From the IMG/VR virus record IMGVR_UViG_3300045988_086395: a stretch of 16,487 nucleotides of DNA, one strand, 5' to 3'. Below the pieces are notes generated by a model. It was given only the letters and a program-made list of their open reading frames with translations, made no database searches and was not told the origin of the DNA. Positions 40-16,487 of this stretch are shown here, one piece after another (within the stretch, counting starts at the first letter, position 1; the number at the start of each line of letters is the position of its first letter). The stretch comes from a virus. Position numbers and translations under genes: made by a program.

Positions 40-324
40 CACCGAACAAATGTTCGCTTCCCATTCCTATTCTTTTCATGTTTTTCACTTGACAACAACA
101 CCAACATATGCATAACAAAATAAATCCTTGACAGAATGAACAAGCTATGCTAGCACGTCGAAAAGTATACACTGTACACATGCAATCTAGTCAACAATTG
201 ACTGGCCGTTGCTAAGTGTACACTGTATACTACTGCACCACTCATCCATAGAAAACGTGAATGAGACAACGCACGTATAACGTGCTATAATGGTCTTGTC
301 GTTGAGGAGAAGGAGTGGAAGATG
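40..324. repeat. Left inverted terminal repeat (285 bp). It is the exact reverse complement of 16164-16448 and runs through the ATG of the first gene.
   Basis: A stepwise reverse-complement comparison of both ends checked several long blocks and all were identical. The match ends at ...GGAGTGGAAGATG, after which the two ends diverge (ATGAAAAG vs ATGGCAAT). Confidence 0.85.
263..291 (+). promoter_or_regulatory. Sigma-A-type promoter inside the left ITR. Elements: -35 GAGACA (263-268), 17-bp spacer, extended -10 TGcTATAAT (283-291). The spacer is occupied by the palindrome GCACG-TATAA-CGTGC (271-285), which looks like an operator.
   Basis: Read directly from the sequence. Spacing and the TG-extended -10 are canonical. 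The RBS AAGGAG (311-316) and ATG (322) follow. Confidence 0.6.
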
Positions 325-552
325 AAAAGATGCAGTAATAAATTTATCATTTATTATTCAAATGATGTAGATGTGGAGAAAGTTTATGCGTCACTTAGGT
401 TAGATCAAGCAATGATGAATTTCATTGAAATAAATAATGATAAAATGTTCTCGTTAATAGCATATGATACTGATGATTATATTAAAGCATTGGATATGAT
501 TAAAGGGCAATATAAGTATTATATCGCTGATTTTCTAGAAAAGGATGAATAA
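322..552 (+). CDS. Hypothetical early protein (76 aa), first gene of the left-end operon.
   Basis: ATG sits immediately at the inner ITR boundary, preceded by AAGGAG with 6-nt spacing. Its stop overlaps the next start (TAATG). Confidence 0.6.
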   Translation: MKRCSNKFIIYYSNDVDVEKVYASLRLDQAMMNFIEINNDKMFSLIAYDTDDYIKALDMIKGQYKYYIADFLEKDE

Positions 553-764
553 TGAAAATTGTAACAATATACAAGGTAAATCGAGAGATTGAATGTGATG
601 CTGAATATTGTGAGTTTGTTAAATATGAAGAAATAATATCCGATCTGAATAAAGGTGGTAAATGGCTTTATGCGCAATGTTTTAGCACGAATAAATTGAC
701 AATGCGGTATATTTATCCAAATGGTGAAATCTTAGACGAATTTGGAAGGAGTTATAATGATTGA
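552..764 (+). CDS. Hypothetical early protein (70 aa) with several Cys residues, possibly metal-binding.
   Basis: ATG overlaps the upstream stop (TAATGA), indicating translational coupling. An AAGGATGA-like RBS precedes it. Confidence 0.55.
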   Translation: MKIVTIYKVNREIECDAEYCEFVKYEEIISDLNKGGKWLYAQCFSTNKLTMRYIYPNGEILDEFGRSYND

Positions 765-948
765 AAAAATGAAAGACAACGCTGAGGTACTATCTAACAT
801 TTATAATTGCAGCGTGCGAATCGAAGGAGATAGCTATGTAGCAGACATTGACGGAATTTGCTGCGTGATCGGATACAAAGACAGCGCTTACATTGATCTA
901 TCAGAGAACTGCAAACGTTTCGTGAATATGTTGGTGAATCATATCTAA
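757..948 (+). CDS. Hypothetical early protein (63 aa).
   Basis: The ATG at 757 is preceded by GGAAGGAG with 6-nt spacing and overlaps the upstream stop (ATGATTGA). The ORF-track start at 742 is a TTG. Confidence 0.5.
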   Translation: MIEKMKDNAEVLSNIYNCSVRIEGDSYVADIDGICCVIGYKDSAYIDLSENCKRFVNMLVNHI

Positions 949-958
949 GGAGCAAACA

Positions 959-1063
959 ATGAATGCATGGAGAGATTTTTGGATTGGGACATTGTGCATG
1001 TTGGTTAGTTGCGTTATAGTAATAAGTATGATCATGTTGGTTATTGGCGTACAGGGGGCATAA
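959..1063 (+). CDS. Small hydrophobic peptide (34 aa, MNAWRDFWIGTLCMLVSCVIVISMIMLVIGVQGA). It is not in the ORF track, being below the size cutoff.
   Basis: A perfect AAGGAG RBS lies 8 nt upstream. It has a single predicted TM helix. Its stop TAA overlaps the next ATG (TAATG). Confidence 0.4.
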   Translation: MNAWRDFWIGTLCMLVSCVIVISMIMLVIGVQGA

Positions 1064-1359
1064 TGAATGATTACGAAATTTTTGAAAAGCACGCTACAGC
1101 TAACGAAAATCCTGTTGATGATCTTGATATTGTGCTTGGTGATATCAGTTATCGATTGGGAATGCTTGAGGATAAATGCTACGCAGATACTAGCCATGAT
1201 TCGTTTCTAAAATCCCTTATTGTCATTATGTGTACTAGCGTTGTGATCGTGTTCGTAGCCTACACTGAGCTTATGAGTATTTACCACGCATTGATGTTTC
1301 TCGGTATTTTTGGCCTTGTCATTGGAACTGTGCTTATCGGAATCGAGCGTATGCGATGA
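1063..1359 (+). CDS. Early membrane protein (99 aa): acidic N-terminal domain with C-terminal hydrophobic helices.
   Basis: ATG at 1063 with an AGGGGG RBS. The ORF-track start at 1009 is a TTG. Its C-terminus is strongly hydrophobic (LIVIMCTSVVIVFVAY...FLGIFGLVIGTVLIGI). Confidence 0.55.
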   Translation: MNDYEIFEKHATANENPVDDLDIVLGDISYRLGMLEDKCYADTSHDSFLKSLIVIMCTSVVIVFVAYTELMSIYHALMFLGIFGLVIGTVLIGIERMR

Positions 1360-1616
1360 AAACGAAAGTGGTGTTGGTTGCTATGTATGTAGGCAAATCC
1401 TGGTGTTATATCTACGCTGATGAGAATAGCGAAGAATGGTTGATCGTTGATGAGAAGACGGTGGCGCAAGTAATCTACTCAGGTAAAGATTATACGTGGT
1501 ACGATCAATATGGCAACACCCATAAGGCTAAATCATTTGACACCATGGTTAGAAATGCGGTGCGGTTGTACAATGTAGCTTCGGCTACTATTGGAAGGAC
1601 TAAGATCAATCTATGA
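1356..1616 (+). CDS. Hypothetical early protein (86 aa).
   Basis: ATGA start/stop overlap with the upstream gene and the same codon-usage pattern. Function not recognisable. Confidence 0.55.
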   Translation: MKTKVVLVAMYVGKSWCYIYADENSEEWLIVDEKTVAQVIYSGKDYTWYDQYGNTHKAKSFDTMVRNAVRLYNVASATIGRTKINL

Positions 1617-1696
1617 CAGACAATGGTTGGATGTTTGCGCTGCTGCTGATATTGGTTTTGTCAGCAGCAGTTTTCATTGATTTTATTCGCAAATAA
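1613..1696 (+). CDS. Possible hydrophobic mini-ORF (27 aa, MTDNGWMFALLLILVLSAAVFIDFIRK). This is very tentative, because it contains the terminator hairpin.
   Basis: Start overlaps the upstream stop as ATGA and it has a single hydrophobic stretch. The coding sequence coincides with a stem-loop. Confidence 0.25.
   Translation: MTDNGWMFALLLILVLSAAVFIDFIRK
1640..1684 (+). terminator. Rho-independent terminator for the plus-strand early operon. It lies at the convergence point with the minus-strand genes.
   Basis: A 10-bp perfect stem CTGCTGCTGA / TCAGCAGCAG with an 11-nt loop, followed by TTTTCATTGATTTT. Confidence 0.5.
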
Positions 1697-4983: not shown

Positions 4984-6108
4984 TCACTCAGGATAAACAG
5001 GGTCGGGGACACAATCAACAGGGAAATTAGCAAGTGCCATGATGGCAGGATCTACAGGATCAGGAGGAATCGGCGCATTAAGATTAACGAGCGATAGTGG
5101 GGTCTGGATTGACATGATATTAATTCTACCGTAGTCGCTTTTCCATGGGCCCGCTCCACCAGCAATATTTATTCCAATGTACAAATAACCATCGGTTCCA
5201 ATTCCATTTGCTATAATATTCTGCCACGTTTGATTACTAGCAGCGTTCGCATTCTGAGCGATACCAACTCCATTGAATATCATAGCTTCGGACGGAGTAA
5301 TAGGCATCTTTATTAATGTTTTGATTGCATAATAGTTGGTGCCAGGCATGATAGAGAGAGTAGGCTGAGTTGCTTTTGCATCAAATTGGATCAATGAATC
5401 AAACTTCCATAGCGTATTGCCATGCAAATACAGTCTGGCGTTTGCTGCAACAAGTGAAGCTCCGTTGCTCAACAATTCCCCTTTGTTATATAATTTAACA
5501 GACCAATTTTCCACGAGGCTGGTATATCCAATTCGATTCGATACATCAGTAAGCTGCGCTTGTGCATTAGAGCTAAGTCCCGCCGTCATATTAAGATCTT
5601 TAGCAGACGCATTGACGCCAAGATTCACAAGATTAACACCAAGCGACGTGCGAGCAGCGGCTGCTGACGTAGCGCCAGTTCCGCCATTGGCAACTGACAC
5701 CGGGAACTTGCTATTCAGCTTCTTAATATCATTAGTATTAGTAGTAATATTTCCCTGCGCGGTTGTAAGATCGTTGCGAAGCTGAGCGATATTTTCAGTG
5801 CTCGTCGCAATGTTACCCTGTGCGGTAGTGAGATCAGTACGAAGACCACTAGTTGCAGTTTGCAGCTTGCTGATGTTGTTAGAATTGGTAGCCACGCCTC
5901 CCTGCGTCGTGGTAAGATCGTTGCGCAGAGCGGTCACGTTAGAGTTGATCGTGGAAATATTGTTGTTGACAGCTACAATCTTATCAGATTGATCTTTAAG
6001 TTCAGTATCAACTTTTCCCATCGCAGCGTTGTACTGATCTGCGAGATCGGGCTTGTCATTTTCTGCGTACAAATCAAGATCATAATTCGGAGTGTAAATA
6101 GATGCCAT
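4984..6108 (-). CDS. Tail fibre / receptor-binding appendage protein (374 aa).
   Basis: ATG at 6108 with a GGAGG RBS at 9-nt spacing, one base after the upstream stop. Contains tandem 21-28-aa repeats (LRNDLTTAQGNI..T.T.NI..L) and a GGTGATSAAAARTSLG motif typical of phage fibres. The ORF-track N-terminal extension overlaps the upstream gene by 113 nt and is rejected. Confidence 0.65.
   Translation of the reverse strand: MASIYTPNYDLDLYAENDKPDLADQYNAAMGKVDTELKDQSDKIVAVNNNISTINSNVTALRNDLTTTQGGVATNSNNISKLQTATSGLRTDLTTAQGNIATSTENIAQLRNDLTTAQGNITTNTNDIKKLNSKFPVSVANGGTGATSAAAARTSLGVNLVNLGVNASAKDLNMTAGLSSNAQAQLTDVSNRIGYTSLVENWSVKLYNKGELLSNGASLVAANARLYLHGNTLWKFDSLIQFDAKATQPTLSIMPGTNYYAIKTLIKMPITPSEAMIFNGVGIAQNANAASNQTWQNIIANGIGTDGYLYIGINIAGGAGPWKSDYGRINIMSIQTPLSLVNLNAPIPPDPVDPAIMALANFPVDCVPDPVYPE
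5715..5930. repeat. Intragenic imperfect tandem repeats (units of about 63 and 84 nt) in the shaft of the tail fibre gene.
   Basis: DNA blocks ...CCCTGCGCGGTTGTAAGATCGTTGCGAAGCTG / CCCTGTGCGGTAGTGAGATCAGTACGAAGAC / CCCTGCGTCGTGGTAAGATCGTTGCGCAGAGC recur. They correspond to the peptide repeats LR(N/T)DLTT(A/T)QG. Confidence 0.5.
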
Positions 6109-12334: not shown

Positions 12335-12341
12335 AAATATC

Positions 12342-12459
12342 CGAGTGATTGATGCTATGCACTGTAGAGCTGCCAGCTAAGCCATGCATCCTGGCGCGTG
12401 TTACCGCGGGCTGTCCAGGCTTGCACTCCCACTCCGCGAACGCCATAGCCATCACTACG
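12342..12459 (-). ncRNA. Candidate structured RNA, possibly the prohead/packaging RNA (pRNA). It is about 115 nt and GC-rich, and its 5' and 3' ends pair in a bulged helix.
   Basis: It starts about 6 nt after the -10 of the 12465-12493 promoter. The 5' arm AGUGAU-G-GCUAUG (12456-12444) pairs with the 3' arm CAUAGC-AUCA-AUCACU (12359-12344), the same end-to-end pairing as the pRNA A-helix. The interior has CGCGG/CCGCG and GCCUGG/CCAGG helices. The 3' segment ACAGUGCAUAGCAUCAAUCAC resembles the phi29 pRNA AAAGUGCACGCUACUUUGAUA. The region is non-coding in all six frames. Confidence 0.45.
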
Positions 12460-12464
12460 TTTTC

Positions 12465-12493
12465 AATATAACACGCTAACTGTCTATTGTCAA
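12465..12493 (-). promoter_or_regulatory. Near-consensus sigma-A promoter (TTGACA, 17 bp, TGtTATATT) in the pol-scaffold intergenic region. It is a candidate promoter for the structured RNA and/or the late operon.
   Basis: Minus strand reads TTGACA-ATAGACAGTTAGCGTGT-TATATT. It lies 14 nt downstream of the pol stop. Confidence 0.6.
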
Positions 12494-12506
12494 CAAAAAC
12501 ATCAAA

Positions 12507-14147
12507 TCAACGGATGGTGAAATCAGACTCGACCAGCACAATACCGCCTGGCACATGTTTCGGCACAAGCTTGCCTCCTGGGACAACCAAGCCTATATCA
12601 AAATCTTCAAACCTCACCTGATCACGCATATCCGCCGAAAGCCCTGCACACTTCACAAGATTCTTTCCGTTCACAACCTCGATATACGTTTTCTGCCTCG
12701 GATATTTTGCTTTTTCAAAATCATATTCATGATCCCAAGCGCCAAGTTTCGTCTTGTGAATTTCAAGGCCGCTTGGAATTTCCAGCCCCTCCAAATGCAG
12801 ACTGTCAGTGTCAGCGTATAAAAATCTATTGTACTCATTCTGCGCATGGCTGATAATGTCTTGTCTCGCATACGCCGTAATAAACGCTGCGGCCGCAGTA
12901 TACACTGGATCGCGGTATTCAGGCTCGGCAAACACAGGATATTTAACAACCCCGTCTGCATCTATCATGCATGTTCTACCTGTTACATCAGGGTTAGTTG
13001 CAAGCTTGCCATACAGCGAATTGAGCATAAGCTTCGCTATCATCCTAATAGCTCCAGTGCTTGTTTCTTTAACATGCATCCAGTATTCAATGTACGGATC
13101 AAAAATTCCATTCGCACTTTTAAAAACATAAGCTTCATGATATTCTACCACGTCAACAATGTAATGCTCTTTAAATAGCTCGAAATCAACCGACGTTAAA
13201 CATAATTCCGTCGGCTCATCTATTTCCTCGACATATTGATTATCCATAAAATGCGGGTTGCGTTTGATCTGTAATGTTGGTAAAAATCCATCGCGCAATC
13301 TCGCTGTCACATGCATACGCTGTATATGCAATTTATCTCCAGTGTATCTCCCATCATAAATTGTCGGGTATCCAACAGGCATAGATCGTTGTACCATCAT
13401 CGACGGATACATGCTGTTTTTATCGTAACAACATCCAGGGCCAATAACTCTCCCTTTAGCAATGTCACTTACATATGTGTATCCTCCACGATATGACTTA
13501 CGAATTTCTGCATCCAATTCAAGCGGCAAAACGGGGAAATATTTCTTAAAATTAAATGTTGACTTCGCATGCTTCAGCGCATCAGCACCAATCGTCAATG
13601 CATTCAACGATTGCGCTAATTGCACCCGCAATGCGCAGGCCACGATTTTCACGTCGTTTGAAATATATTCTATTTCATGCTCTGTAAGCTCGTGCCCTGG
13701 CTCTCTATATTCTTGATAATTTAGATCGAGTTTCTGATAATCTAAACCAAAATCCTTAGCAATCGTATCAACGGAAAAGGGCAGCTTCTTGTAACTGTCC
13801 CTAATCTCACAAACATTACTCCCTTTTTTCGTCCTCGAAAAACATATCTTCGCGTTATAAAATTTACGTTGCTCACTCATTAACAACGTAAATTTCTTAG
13901 TATTTAATTTTTCAGCACATTCAAATCCCAAATGCCCCATCAAATAAGCGGCCAAAAATTCAAAATCAAATACTGCGTTATGAAAATAATACGTACCGTT
14001 ATTTTCCTGCATGAAATCAACAAACGTTTCAATTCGATTCCCAAACCATATATTGTTCTCATCAGCAACTTCGCAAACCGACCACGCCCAAACACGACAA
14101 TCATTTCGATCTGTCGTCGTTTCAAAGTCTGCCACATACTCCATCAT
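12507..14147 (-). CDS. Protein-primed family-B DNA polymerase (phi29 gp2-like).
   Basis: ExoI DFETTT + DCRVWA, ExoII FDFEF, ExoIII YISND, motif A NSMYPS, KLMLNSLYGK, motif C YADTDS and KxY RQKTYI. Length 546 aa against 572 for phi29. Confidence 0.95.
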   Translation of the reverse strand: MMEYVADFETTTDRNDCRVWAWSVCEVADENNIWFGNRIETFVDFMQENNGTYYFHNAVFDFEFLAAYLMGHLGFECAEKLNTKKFTLLMSEQRKFYNAKICFSRTKKGSNVCEIRDSYKKLPFSVDTIAKDFGLDYQKLDLNYQEYREPGHELTEHEIEYISNDVKIVACALRVQLAQSLNALTIGADALKHAKSTFNFKKYFPVLPLELDAEIRKSYRGGYTYVSDIAKGRVIGPGCCYDKNSMYPSMMVQRSMPVGYPTIYDGRYTGDKLHIQRMHVTARLRDGFLPTLQIKRNPHFMDNQYVEEIDEPTELCLTSVDFELFKEHYIVDVVEYHEAYVFKSANGIFDPYIEYWMHVKETSTGAIRMIAKLMLNSLYGKLATNPDVTGRTCMIDADGVVKYPVFAEPEYRDPVYTAAAAFITAYARQDIISHAQNEYNRFLYADTDSLHLEGLEIPSGLEIHKTKLGAWDHEYDFEKAKYPRQKTYIEVVNGKNLVKCAGLSADMRDQVRFEDFDIGLVVPGGKLVPKHVPGGIVLVESDFTIR

Positions 14148-14935
14148 TCGCCCCGACGAATGCGCCTGATAAGATCAAGCAGATAGTTCTCCTGATCCTC
14201 AATAACAATGGCCTGCTCAATTGGCTCCCCCATATATTCCATATTAGCCCGAGGGGGAGAATCAATAAAAACTTGCTGCACAAAATCAGATTTAGCGTAT
14301 AGCTCATCCAGTTCCTGAGGCGTCAAACTTTTCAATTCAGCCCTCAAAGCTTCGCTATCCATTGATTCGGCACGTTTAGCTATGTTCGCGATAAGCATTT
14401 CCATTTGCTTGGATTGATACTGGGGAGTTCTAATCCTGTTAATCCGCTCTAAATATTCTCGCGCGGCTTTTTCGCTATGGAAAGTCTCAATATTATGAGG
14501 CGGCAATGGCAATGAGCCAGCATATCCTGCACGGCTATTATATTCGTATCTTCTAGTTTTAGGATTAAACCGTGTGCCCATGAATTGAAACTGTTGAAGG
14601 GTCATATCCCCCATCAACGATTTTTGCTGCGAAGGCGGTATTTCAGCGTAACCATAACGCTTAGCTCTATATTGATTGGTCTTACGTTCTGCGTATCTAA
14701 TTTGTTGCACGAGTTGACGCGATATCGGAGTGCCGTCTTCGCCAGCCACGTAACCGGGATTGTCGATAAAACCAGCAAGCCTGTTCGCATATGATTCTTT
14801 TTGCCGCGTCGTATATCCACTATAATTCCTAATCGGATTAATAGATCCTGTATTTATTCCCCTAGCTTTAATACGAGATAATTTCCTTTTAGCTTTCTGC
14901 TCTAATTCCGCGATACGATTATCTATTCGTGCCAT
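14144..14935 (-). CDS. Putative terminal protein (263 aa), the primer for protein-primed replication.
   Basis: Lies immediately upstream of and overlapping pol (ATGA), as gene 3/gene 2 do in phi29. Similar size to the 266-aa TP. Basic N-terminus MAR...KAKRKLSRIKAR. GGAGG RBS. Confidence 0.6.
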   Translation of the reverse strand: MARIDNRIAELEQKAKRKLSRIKARGINTGSINPIRNYSGYTTRQKESYANRLAGFIDNPGYVAGEDGTPISRQLVQQIRYAERKTNQYRAKRYGYAEIPPSQQKSLMGDMTLQQFQFMGTRFNPKTRRYEYNSRAGYAGSLPLPPHNIETFHSEKAAREYLERINRIRTPQYQSKQMEMLIANIAKRAESMDSEALRAELKSLTPQELDELYAKSDFVQQVFIDSPPRANMEYMGEPIEQAIVIEDQENYLLDLIRRIRRGE

Positions 14936-14957: not shown

Positions 14958-14987
14958 ACAAAAAAGAAGGGGGATTTCTCCCCCTTC
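14958..14987 (-). terminator. Rho-independent terminator between the SSB and TP genes. It probably separates or attenuates the early operon.
   Basis: A 9-bp stem GAAGGGGGA / TCCCCCTTC with a 4-nt loop, followed on the minus strand by TTTTTT, then the TP RBS. Confidence 0.65.
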
Positions 14988-15456: not shown

Positions 15457-15690
15457 TTATTCACCTTTCTTTTCAATAAGCTTTGCATTCGCAACAAACG
15501 TTTCAGCATCCATACCATACTTCTGCTCGTCATACGTAATGCTATTAATGATAACCTGCTTATGCTCCATTTCCTCGATCACAATACGGGCCTTCTGCTC
15601 CGTCAGCCTACCATGCATGACATAGCTTTTACGCTCCCCCGTTTCAGTAGTGTACACCACCGAACTTTCAGTAATCGTCCTCGTAATCAT
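15457..15690 (-). CDS. Putative histone-like dsDNA-binding protein (phi29 p6-like). The ORF may extend to a GTG at 15735, which would add a basic N-terminal tail KGRNNRRKDK.
   Basis: ITRTITESSVVYTTETGE...LTEQKARIV...DAETFVANAKLIEKK resembles p6 (ITKTTVNVAKMVMVDGE...LTMEQAQ...VEKFLEVATVRVEK). It lies immediately upstream of the SSB as in phi29. The internal ATG at 15690 has an AAAGGA RBS. Confidence 0.45.
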   Translation of the reverse strand: MITRTITESSVVYTTETGERKSYVMHGRLTEQKARIVIEEMEHKQVIINSITYDEQKYGMDAETFVANAKLIEKKGE

Positions 15691-15734
15691 TATCTTATCC
15701 TTTCTTCTATTATTACGTCCCTTTGACGTAATCA

Positions 15735-15950
15735 CTAAATAGTCAACGTGCCGCTATCGAGAATTGCATTGCAACGAGCGACAGAACTTTTAAGATCAAC
15801 AATCCAATCGCCATAATCGCCAACCATGAGAGAGTGATCATTGGCTTCGTCTTCGCACACATAATAGCCTTGCGTTGGAATAAAACGTATCGTGTAATCA
15901 CTGATTGACTGTAGTTCTTCTACCACTTTTGAAATATCGTATGCGTTCAT
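15735..15950 (-). CDS. Hypothetical early protein (71 aa).
   Basis: Strong AAGGAGG RBS 5 nt before the ATG. Acidic protein with no recognisable motif. Confidence 0.5.
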   Translation of the reverse strand: MNAYDISKVVEELQSISDYTIRFIPTQGYYVCEDEANDHSLMVGDYGDWIVDLKSSVARCNAILDSGTLTI

Positions 15951-15965
15951 TGTATCCTCCTTAAT

Positions 15966-16166
15966 TTAAGTCTCTATAACTGTATAATATCCTTCTTTAT
16001 CCAATTCTATAATTTTCTTAACCAACATAGATATATCGAAAAAAGAAAACTTTCTAATGCCCGAAATACCAACAAACTTGTCCATTGCATTTATATTGCG
16101 ATCAAGTTCGTTAAACAACCTAGCAACATCATGTACTTGAGAACAATAAACAATATAAATTGCCAT
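15966..16166 (-). CDS. Hypothetical early protein (66 aa), first gene of the right-end operon. Its promoter, 5'UTR, RBS and ATG are identical to those of the gene at 322.
   Basis: ATG at the inner boundary of the right ITR. Possibly a distant paralog of the 76-aa left-end protein (shared IYIVY...V.DV......L / ..KFSFFD pattern). Confidence 0.55.
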   Translation of the reverse strand: MAIYIVYCSQVHDVARLFNELDRNINAMDKFVGISGIRKFSFFDISMLVKKIIELDKEGYYTVIET

Positions 16167-16448
16167 CTTCCACTCCTTCTCCTCAACGACAAGACCATTA
16201 TAGCACGTTATACGTGCGTTGTCTCATTCACGTTTTCTATGGATGAGTGGTGCAGTAGTATACAGTGTACACTTAGCAACGGCCAGTCAATTGTTGACTA
16301 GATTGCATGTGTACAGTGTATACTTTTCGACGTGCTAGCATAGCTTGTTCATTCTGTCAAGGATTTATTTTGTTATGCATATGTTGGTGTTGTTGTCAAG
16401 TGAAAAACATGAAAAGAATAGGAATGGGAAGCGAACATTTGTTCGGTG
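16164..16448. repeat. Right inverted terminal repeat (285 bp).
   Basis: Exact reverse complement of 40-324. Confidence 0.85.
16197..16225 (-). promoter_or_regulatory. Mirror copy of the ITR promoter (-35 GAGACA, operator palindrome, TGcTATAAT). It drives the right-end early operon inward.
   Basis: Exact reverse complement of 263-291. Confidence 0.6.
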
Positions 16449-16487
16449 CTGTCTCTTATACACATCTGACGCTGCCGACGAAGGCTT
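16449..16487. other. Nextera adapter remnant: reverse complement of the mosaic end, TCGTCGGCAGCGTC and the i5 tail. Not biological.
   Basis: CTGTCTCTTATACACATCT GACGCTGCCGACGA AGGCTT is the reverse complement of bases 1-39. Confidence 0.9.

Follow-up and report, generated by a model that had tools for sequence, protein, structure and literature searches.

Genome layout and terminal repeats

We analysed the IMG/VR virus record IMGVR_UViG_3300045988_086395, a stretch of 16,487 nucleotides (nt) hereafter called the window, with attention to its inverted terminal repeats (ITRs) and to the genes that begin at their inner edges. Positions 1–324 and 16164–16487 form an inverted repeat that is 100% complementary. 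The left ITR spans 40–324 on the plus strand and is fully complementary to the right ITR at 16164–16448 on the minus strand, in agreement with a preliminary description of this DNA. Each repeat ends directly after an ATG (322–324 at the left end; 16166–16164 on the minus strand at the right end). Past the repeat the two sides differ at once: one continues with AAAAGA, the other with GCAATT. The repeat therefore runs through the start codons of two different terminal genes, as had been proposed, and the list of open reading frames (ORFs) bears out an ORF of 76 amino acids (aa) behind one copy and of 66 aa behind the other. The 76-aa gene (322–552, plus strand) is the first gene of the left operon and the 66-aa gene (15966–16166, minus strand) is the first of the right operon; both were orphans in Pfam, PHROG and homolog searches.

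The window is quite likely a near-complete linear genome of an uncultured, phi29-like, protein-primed podovirus (former Picovirinae, Cp-1/Av-1-like layout) from the human gut, with ITRs that contain inward early promoters. Because of this genome type, terminal repeats are expected. The window encodes a protein-primed family B DNA polymerase (PF03175, DNA_pol_B_2, E = 3.9e-60). Every polymerase record compared was below 60% identity; the nearest cultured relatives were Hungatella phage CH17P1 (45.6%, the best) and Actinomyces phage Av-1 (42.9%). The phi29-type gp16 ATPase, connector, tail knob and major capsid protein were also found (PF05894, PF05352, PF20934 and PF25622, all above cut-offs). 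Sibling contigs originate from human gut metagenomes. The host is probably a Firmicute of the gut.

Two inward gene blocks start at the repeats. From the right end, a minus-strand block encodes the 66-aa orphan, a 71-aa orphan, a p6-like protein, a phi29-type single-stranded DNA-binding protein (SSB) and a 263-aa ORF (Pfam and PHROG), followed by the protein-primed polymerase, the phi29 major capsid protein, the tail knob, the connector, lysins and the gp16 packaging ATPase. The 263-aa ORF (14144–14935) matched no Pfam or PHROG family; by synteny it lies in the position of the terminal protein, and it overlaps the start of the polymerase gene. From the left end, five small plus-strand ORFs (322–1616) converge on the minus-strand block.

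The outermost bases are not phage sequence. Positions 1–39, mirrored at 16449–16487, read AAGCCT + TCGTCGGCAGCGTC + AGATGTGTATAAGAGACAG, which we take to be an Illumina Nextera adapter composed of the i5 index tail, the read-1 adapter and the Tn5 mosaic end. The preliminary choice of position 40 as the start of the repeat was therefore right. When the entire window was compared with 50,697 phage records by megablast, the only matches were to 6–39 and 16441–16487, in unrelated phages and often at record ends. The same 33 adapter nt recur as contamination in many deposited phage records, frequently at the record ends.

The repeat is also truncated on its outer side. In three sibling contigs, the sequence continues outward before CACCGAAC as TCTCCCGCG (IMG/VR 080385 and L104) or ATACTCTCCCGCG (L099). 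These contigs reach at least 13 nt further out, and the true repeat is therefore at least 298 base pairs (bp). The physical ends, where a short base reiteration for sliding-back would stand, lie beyond the window and its siblings: adapter occupies the window up to position 39, and the longest sibling begins with ATACTCTCCCGCG.

Both junctions between the repeat and unique sequence recurred in other assemblies. The right junction (repeat to ATGGCAATT) was present in nine contigs and the left junction (repeat to ATGAAAAGA) in eight. These 17 contigs come from separate human-gut assemblies made with megahit, SPAdes, Logan and other pipelines. In one sample (ERZ942275), the left and right ends are found on two different contigs (L097 and L106). 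The start of several megahit contigs lies precisely one k-mer (127 or 119 nt) ahead of the divergence point, as a de Bruijn graph would produce at the edge of an inverted repeat. In the sibling 080385 (~97% identical), the repeat is a perfect one of 294 nt and departs from the window at six positions, with identical substitutions at the two ends. A contig from another project (L008) also carries the repeat at both ends of a single contig.

A shared probable promoter and start codon at both ends

The inner part of each repeat is probably a sigma-A type, extended −10 early promoter that fires inward, as judged from its sequence elements. The promoter scan placed it at 263–291 on the plus strand, with its mirror at 16225–16197 on the minus strand, so that it lies at the inner edge of the ITR at equal distance from both ends. 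It has the form GAGACA-17-TGcTATAAT, with the −35 hexamer GAGACA at 263–268, the TG at 283–284 and TATAAT at 286–291. The RBS AAGGAG follows at 310–315. These elements, all of them previously reported for both ends, were present where they had been placed. Transcription is predicted to start near 298 on the left and near 16190 on the right, because the Cp-1 start falls 7 nt after its −10 element, and the 5′ untranslated region (UTR) would then span 298–321 on the plus strand. The data support the view that both terminal operons of this strain share promoter, 5′UTR, RBS and ATG.

Two further lines of evidence bear on this promoter. It shares the TGCTATAAT extended −10 element with the PE promoters of Streptococcus phage Cp-1, which have annotated start points. 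It was also invariant in all 19 aligned ITR copies that reach it, and L008 keeps it too. The genes behind the two copies differ in the window (76-aa versus 66-aa ORFs), and L008 and L006 carry other cargo.

Two TTGACA hexamers had been noted further out in the repeat. The first is at 89–94 (plus strand), as reported; the second lies at 128–133 (plus strand) rather than at 127–132. The promoter scan found no properly spaced, acceptable −10 element for either. At 17 nt from the second hexamer stands TGcTAGCAC, without the T at −7, and this hexamer reads ATGACA in strain L099.

We compared the inner edge of the repeat among strains. In sibling strains, the repeat stops about 5 or 12 nt short of the ATG. 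All right-end contigs have the canonical spacer, and the left-end contigs L107–L110 have AGGA in place of GAAG just before the ATG, with a spacer that differs from about window position 318. L107–L110 start one k-mer before this AGGA/GAAG difference (55 nt for SPAdes; 31 nt for Logan), and their repeat boundary is therefore about 5 nt before the ATG. In L105 and L111, the difference is inside the RBS.

Other changes affected whole genes. L008 (ENA ERZ24773300 NODE_4037), whose connector is 99% identical, ends its repeat at GTTGAGGAGA and keeps the promoter at both ends. It lacks the equivalents of window 313–824 and 15952–16175, and with them both terminal genes and part of the left arm; the promoter therefore abuts other genes. 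The terminal genes are dispensable, variable cargo. In L006 (Logan DRR588481_46; connector 57%), the two ends share AGGAG...ATGAAAA. Behind this shared stretch a 174-aa gene begins on one side, and the other side (1–60) reads MKSPR-stop, an ORF of five codons, and then a GC hairpin and a T-run. This end looks like a copied cassette without a gene behind it. The L006 end with the five-codon ORF carries a holin-lysozyme pair, a gene order unlike that of the window. The strains show the inner edge of the repeat to be a hot spot for the swap or loss of small accessory genes.

Several observations weigh against our main reading of the repeat as an ITR with an inward early promoter and regulatory sites. 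The window contains 43 promoter-like sites compared to 39.4 in shuffles, and the promoter match alone is not significant; its −35 element matches the consensus at only 4/6 positions. The strains with the ITR sequence are all close relatives, and the conservation of promoter and palindromes is of little statistical weight. The perfect identity of the arms within one contig is partly a property of the assembler, by which a repeat is collapsed and written twice. Pfam and PHROG searches of all small ORFs found no DNA-binding domain (no helix-turn-helix and no ribbon-helix-helix) besides the p6-like non-specific binder. The hairpin in L006 was seen by reading the sequence and was not called by the terminator scan. 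Among 80 IMG/VR relatives surveyed via the connector, long ITRs occurred solely in L036 (213 bp) and L058 (609 bp), neither of which showed a promoter at the inner ITR edge in the scan. The design is therefore not universal, and we do not claim generality. The distant relative L003 has a terminal repeat of just 28 nt. Searching IMG/VR and JGI metagenomes for exact matches to the promoter core returned nothing beyond the contigs already in the set.

The preliminary description had held that a complete duplicated cassette of promoter and translation start was undescribed in such ITRs. This claim largely fails, because inward ITR promoters are already annotated in Cp-1, with start points at both ends, and in Av-1. 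Our comparison used the GenBank annotations (NC_001825 for Cp-1; NC_009643 for Av-1) and our own end alignments. Literature searches found no paper on promoters inside the long ITRs of phi29-like phages.

Like the window, Cp-1 is a protein-primed podovirus with the same overall layout and a long ITR, although its DNA polymerase is less than 46% identical to that of the window. Its annotated perfect repeat is 236 bp, and the ends are about 98% identical out to nt 352. Two tandem TTGACA-17-TGCTATAAT promoters stand at each end of Cp-1, their −35 boxes at positions 222 and 316 counted from that end; the window, by contrast, shows a single clear promoter, and its −35 is weak. The annotated starts are PE1/PE2 at 351/357 on the left and PE4/PE5 at 18993/19087 on the right (351 and 257 nt from the right end). 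Cp-1 and the window share the TGCTATAAT extended −10, different small genes behind each end and a palindrome that takes up the promoter spacer and has TGC as its last bases (GCATTT-TGAG-AAATGC in Cp-1; GCACGT-ATA-ACGTGC in the window). In Cp-1, identity between the ends extends no further than the transcription start, and each end has an RBS of its own, whereas identity in the window runs about 27 nt longer. The Cp-1 annotation also lists an outward promoter in each ITR (L014 150–177, minus strand; 19166–19193, plus strand), and no counterpart was found in the window ITR.

Av-1 resembles the window in gene order, with inward small ORFs, SSB, terminal protein, polymerase, structural and lysis genes and a convergent arm of small ORFs. 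It has an ITR of ~210 bp, promoters annotated at the inner edge equidistant from the ends (−35 boxes 206 nt from each end) and a long upstream palindrome with 17-bp arms. Unlike that of the window, the repeat of Av-1 has only 94% identity and reaches no further inward than the −35 box; −10, UTR and RBS differ between the ends. On these alignments, the cassette of the window is mostly not novel compared to Cp-1 and Av-1: only the extra ~27 nt of identity through 5′UTR, RBS and ATG is new, and this extension is strain-specific.

In phi29, an inward early promoter (C2) lies near the right genome end, and p6, a small double-stranded DNA-binding protein produced early, coats the ends, activates the origin and silences this promoter (PMC4974454). 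The window encodes a p6-like protein in its ITR-driven operon. The phi29 ITR is just 6 bp, and C2 is not duplicated for this reason; the left end of phi29 carries the packaging RNA (pRNA) gene. Other protein-primed elements offer looser parallels. ORFs or transcripts are reported to begin inside the terminal repeats of fungal mitochondrial plasmids (kalilo, maranhar), and the terminal repeats of adenovirus and PRD1 are corrected against each other. As in the window, promoters or gene starts may thus sit in protein-primed repeats, and repeats are kept identical; however, these are unrelated elements with other polymerases and promoters and no sequence relationship to the window.

Dyad-symmetric sites and alternative explanations

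We observed several symmetric sites in the repeat. Three perfect palindromes with arms of at least 6 bp compare with 0.51 in shuffles (P about 0.007). CGAACA-AA-TGTTCG (43–56) lies near the terminus, is invariant in the three siblings that reach that far out and is a candidate origin-auxiliary or protein-binding site. AGTCAA-CAA-TTGACT is present as previously described, but at 189–203 and not 190–204. The spacer palindrome had been correctly placed at 271–285; its arms are 6 bp (GCACGT-ATA-ACGTGC) and not the shorter GCACG-TATAA-CGTGC, and it fills the promoter spacer and includes the extended −10 TG. This is the classic position for a repressor, and the palindrome is a candidate operator on the basis of its placement.

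Two 15-mers of the pattern GTRTACA-N-TGTAYAC were also reported correctly, at slightly wrong positions: they lie at 165–179 (GTATACA-C-TGTACAC) and 216–230 (GTGTACA-C-TGTATAC) instead of 167–181 and 215–229. Their description as an inverted pair flanking the 189–203 palindrome did not hold. They are better seen as the dyad cores of two copies of a 24-nt direct repeat (family D3; 156–179 and 207–230, both plus strand), which are 79% identical, with a 51-bp period and similarity that extends 9 nt upstream of the dyad. The 15-mer consensus occurred only in the repeats (4 matches compared to 0.13 expected), a figure that is partly circular because the pattern was derived from the same sites. Judged by their symmetry and placement, the palindromes and dyad 15-mers most probably bind dimeric proteins, which would control the promoter, assist the origin or do both.

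One alternative is that these sites are auxiliary elements of the replication origin, which aid the complex of terminal protein and polymerase and have little to do with transcription. In adenovirus repeats, NFI and Oct-1 sites assist initiation by such a complex. The sites in the window are confined to the repeats, one palindrome is about 17–30 nt from the inferred end, and the dyads have their centres about 75 and 126 nt upstream of the inferred start, which puts them outside the core promoter. In phi29, p6 nucleates 46–125 nt from the genome ends, where it stimulates initiation and also turns off the end-proximal promoter C2 (PMC4974454). This last example cuts both ways, as p6 performs both roles and the two are compatible. 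The spacer palindrome, moreover, overlaps the TG of the promoter and has a counterpart in both Cp-1 promoters. We consider a purely replicative role possible but doubtful.

A second proposal concerns the two first genes, which could be diverged paralogs, the remains of a formerly longer repeat in which a whole gene was contained. A faint similarity between the two proteins had been pointed out, and BLASTP reproduced it as an alignment of 61 collinear residues with 28% identity (E = 0.04) that starts near the N termini. The Smith-Waterman score of 45 was the top of 28 small-protein pairs (shuffle P = 0.005–0.008). A gradual decay of this kind is seen in Cp-1, where 236 perfect nt give way to an imperfect stretch up to 352. 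However, there is no DNA similarity past the ATG, L008 is without both genes, and the Cp-1 and Av-1 first genes are dissimilar. Both proteins are orphans, so that profile comparison is impossible: a word-indexed homolog search with the 66-aa protein found only itself, and an exhaustive phmmer search of 1.84 billion representatives with the 76-aa protein found only a 37-aa fragment of itself. AlphaFold2 single-sequence models disagree (beta-alpha-beta-beta-alpha compared to two helices), at low confidence (pLDDT 65 and 47). Equally faint scores also join unrelated pairs, such as the 66-aa protein and Cp-1 orfa (P = 0.002). These data make paralogy unlikely. Among faint pairs of small proteins adjacent to ITRs, that between Cp-1 orf1 and Av-1 ORF1 (P = 0.001) and the one with Cp-1 orfa were both borderline after 21 comparisons.

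A third proposal is that the 164–231 region, together with adjacent sequence, functions as a folded nucleic acid, either a small or pRNA-like transcript from an upstream TTGACA or a DNA hairpin in the displaced strand. The single-stranded repeat does fold far better than shuffles (z = −5.8 for the plus and −4.8 for the minus strand), in a three-way arrangement with a 68-nt hairpin that pairs the two 15-mers (−31.1 kcal/mol). A C-to-T change at window 185 retains a G-U pair, the Av-1 repeat also has a long hairpin, and Rfam found no pRNA elsewhere in the window. The natural variation argues otherwise. L099 and L101–L103 carry the site-2 variant GTATACA-C-TGCATAC (GTATACACTGCATAC), which adds two uncompensated A-C mismatches and lowers the hairpin from −31.1 to −18.2 kcal/mol (a cost of about 11–13 kcal/mol), and each site remains 6/7 dyad symmetric. 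Each stem arm has dyad symmetry of its own, a property superfluous in a stem, and the flanks match as direct and not inverted repeats. There was no Rfam match and no acceptable upstream promoter, and the annotated pRNA of Av-1 lies outside its repeat. We therefore favour dyads over a selected hairpin or RNA, because each 15-mer is itself a dyad, its flanks are direct repeats and the variant is uncompensated. The repeat folds well, but natural variants break its main stem without compensation, and a folded RNA or DNA is very unlikely.

An assembly artefact, in which a chimera, a hairpin read or a collapsed repeat copied one end onto the other, is extremely improbable: arms identical including the adapter show that the assembler reused one unitig at both ends, but both junctions stand independently in the 17 contigs (among them separate left and right contigs of one sample), L008 and 080385 have the repeat on both ends of single contigs, and a protein-primed genome requires matching ends.

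Proposed function and additional features

We propose that the binding sites for dimeric proteins and the inward promoter belong to one arrangement, in which the ITRs (at least 298 bp) would be the two replication origins and the inner edge of each would be an early sigma-A type promoter firing inward. The left copy would drive the five small ORFs, and the right copy the 66-aa, 71-aa, p6-like and SSB genes. The two copies could be kept identical by homogenisation, through panhandle pairing of displaced-strand ends and repair or through end recombination, a mechanism that we infer from other protein-primed replicons. Identity would spread inward until the first base where the ends must differ, here the codon after the ATG. 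The shared 5′UTR, RBS and ATG would then be a by-product of homogenisation and end replacement and not a purpose-built cassette, and frequent end replacement would be accompanied by turnover of cargo at the repeat edge.

The p6-like gene (15457–15735, minus strand; phrog_6370, E = 3.1e-6) encodes a putative double-stranded DNA-binding protein in the right terminal operon. By analogy, its product is a candidate for coating and regulating the repeats: it may shut off both terminal promoters and activate the origins. Such feedback is plausible because phi29 p6 acts in this way at C2 and the window has a p6-like gene in a repeat-driven operon. The gene encodes 92 aa in the window, L099 and L103, and 77 aa after a 45-nt gap in L095–L098 and L100–L102 (window 15457–15735 compared to L095 601–834). 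The difference is either an allelic replacement or a different start.

Taken as a whole, the repeat might be a self-copying platform for early expression: a homogenised promoter-UTR-RBS-ATG at both termini would express any gene brought in behind it by recombination early and in step with the other end, dyads and the p6-like protein would couple operon shut-off to origin activation, and the first genes would be diverged copies of a single gene formerly within the repeat. All of these parts holding together is decidedly unlikely. If the platform exists, it would explain the rapid turnover of small orphan genes, possibly for host takeover or anti-defence, at both ends. The window is a tidy example, from an uncultured gut phage, of the Cp-1/Av-1 design that unites origins and early promoters in one terminal repeat. 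Its ITR design opens no new question. The two dyad 15-mers and the spacer palindrome are defined candidate regulatory sites. The practical value is modest and includes flagging the adapter contamination and the incomplete ends of the contig.

The two terminal operons are closed by terminator-like hairpins, which the terminator scan placed at 1639–1671 (plus strand) for the left operon and, after the SSB gene, at 14966–14987 (minus strand) for the first right operon. The junction of the convergent operons (1613–1683) forms a strong hairpin of 13 pairs with a sub-threshold Rfam match to Chlorobi-RRM (28.9 bits compared to a gathering score of 45; E = 0.016). A simple bidirectional terminator is the most likely reading of this hairpin. 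A whole-window Rfam search at E up to 10 found no credible RNA family; the top-scoring match resembled a terminator and stayed under the gathering score. The same search found no match to pRNA; that model was built from Bacillus phages, and a divergent pRNA could escape it. The annotated pRNA of Av-1 (L013 16295–16402) is in the arm equivalent to window 322–1616, on the opposite strand. By this analogy, a divergent pRNA may be hidden in that arm of the window.

Two features of the central region stood out. A putative fibre gene on the minus strand, for a tail-fibre-like protein of 412 aa, contains three diverged 66-nt units within its coiled-coil part (5716–5928); these are 63 and 84 nt apart and 67–73% identical. 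The 170-nt gap between the polymerase gene and a scaffold-like gene (12337–12506) contains the best promoter match of the genome, TTGACA-17-TGnTATATT on the minus strand (12493–12465), a candidate late promoter.

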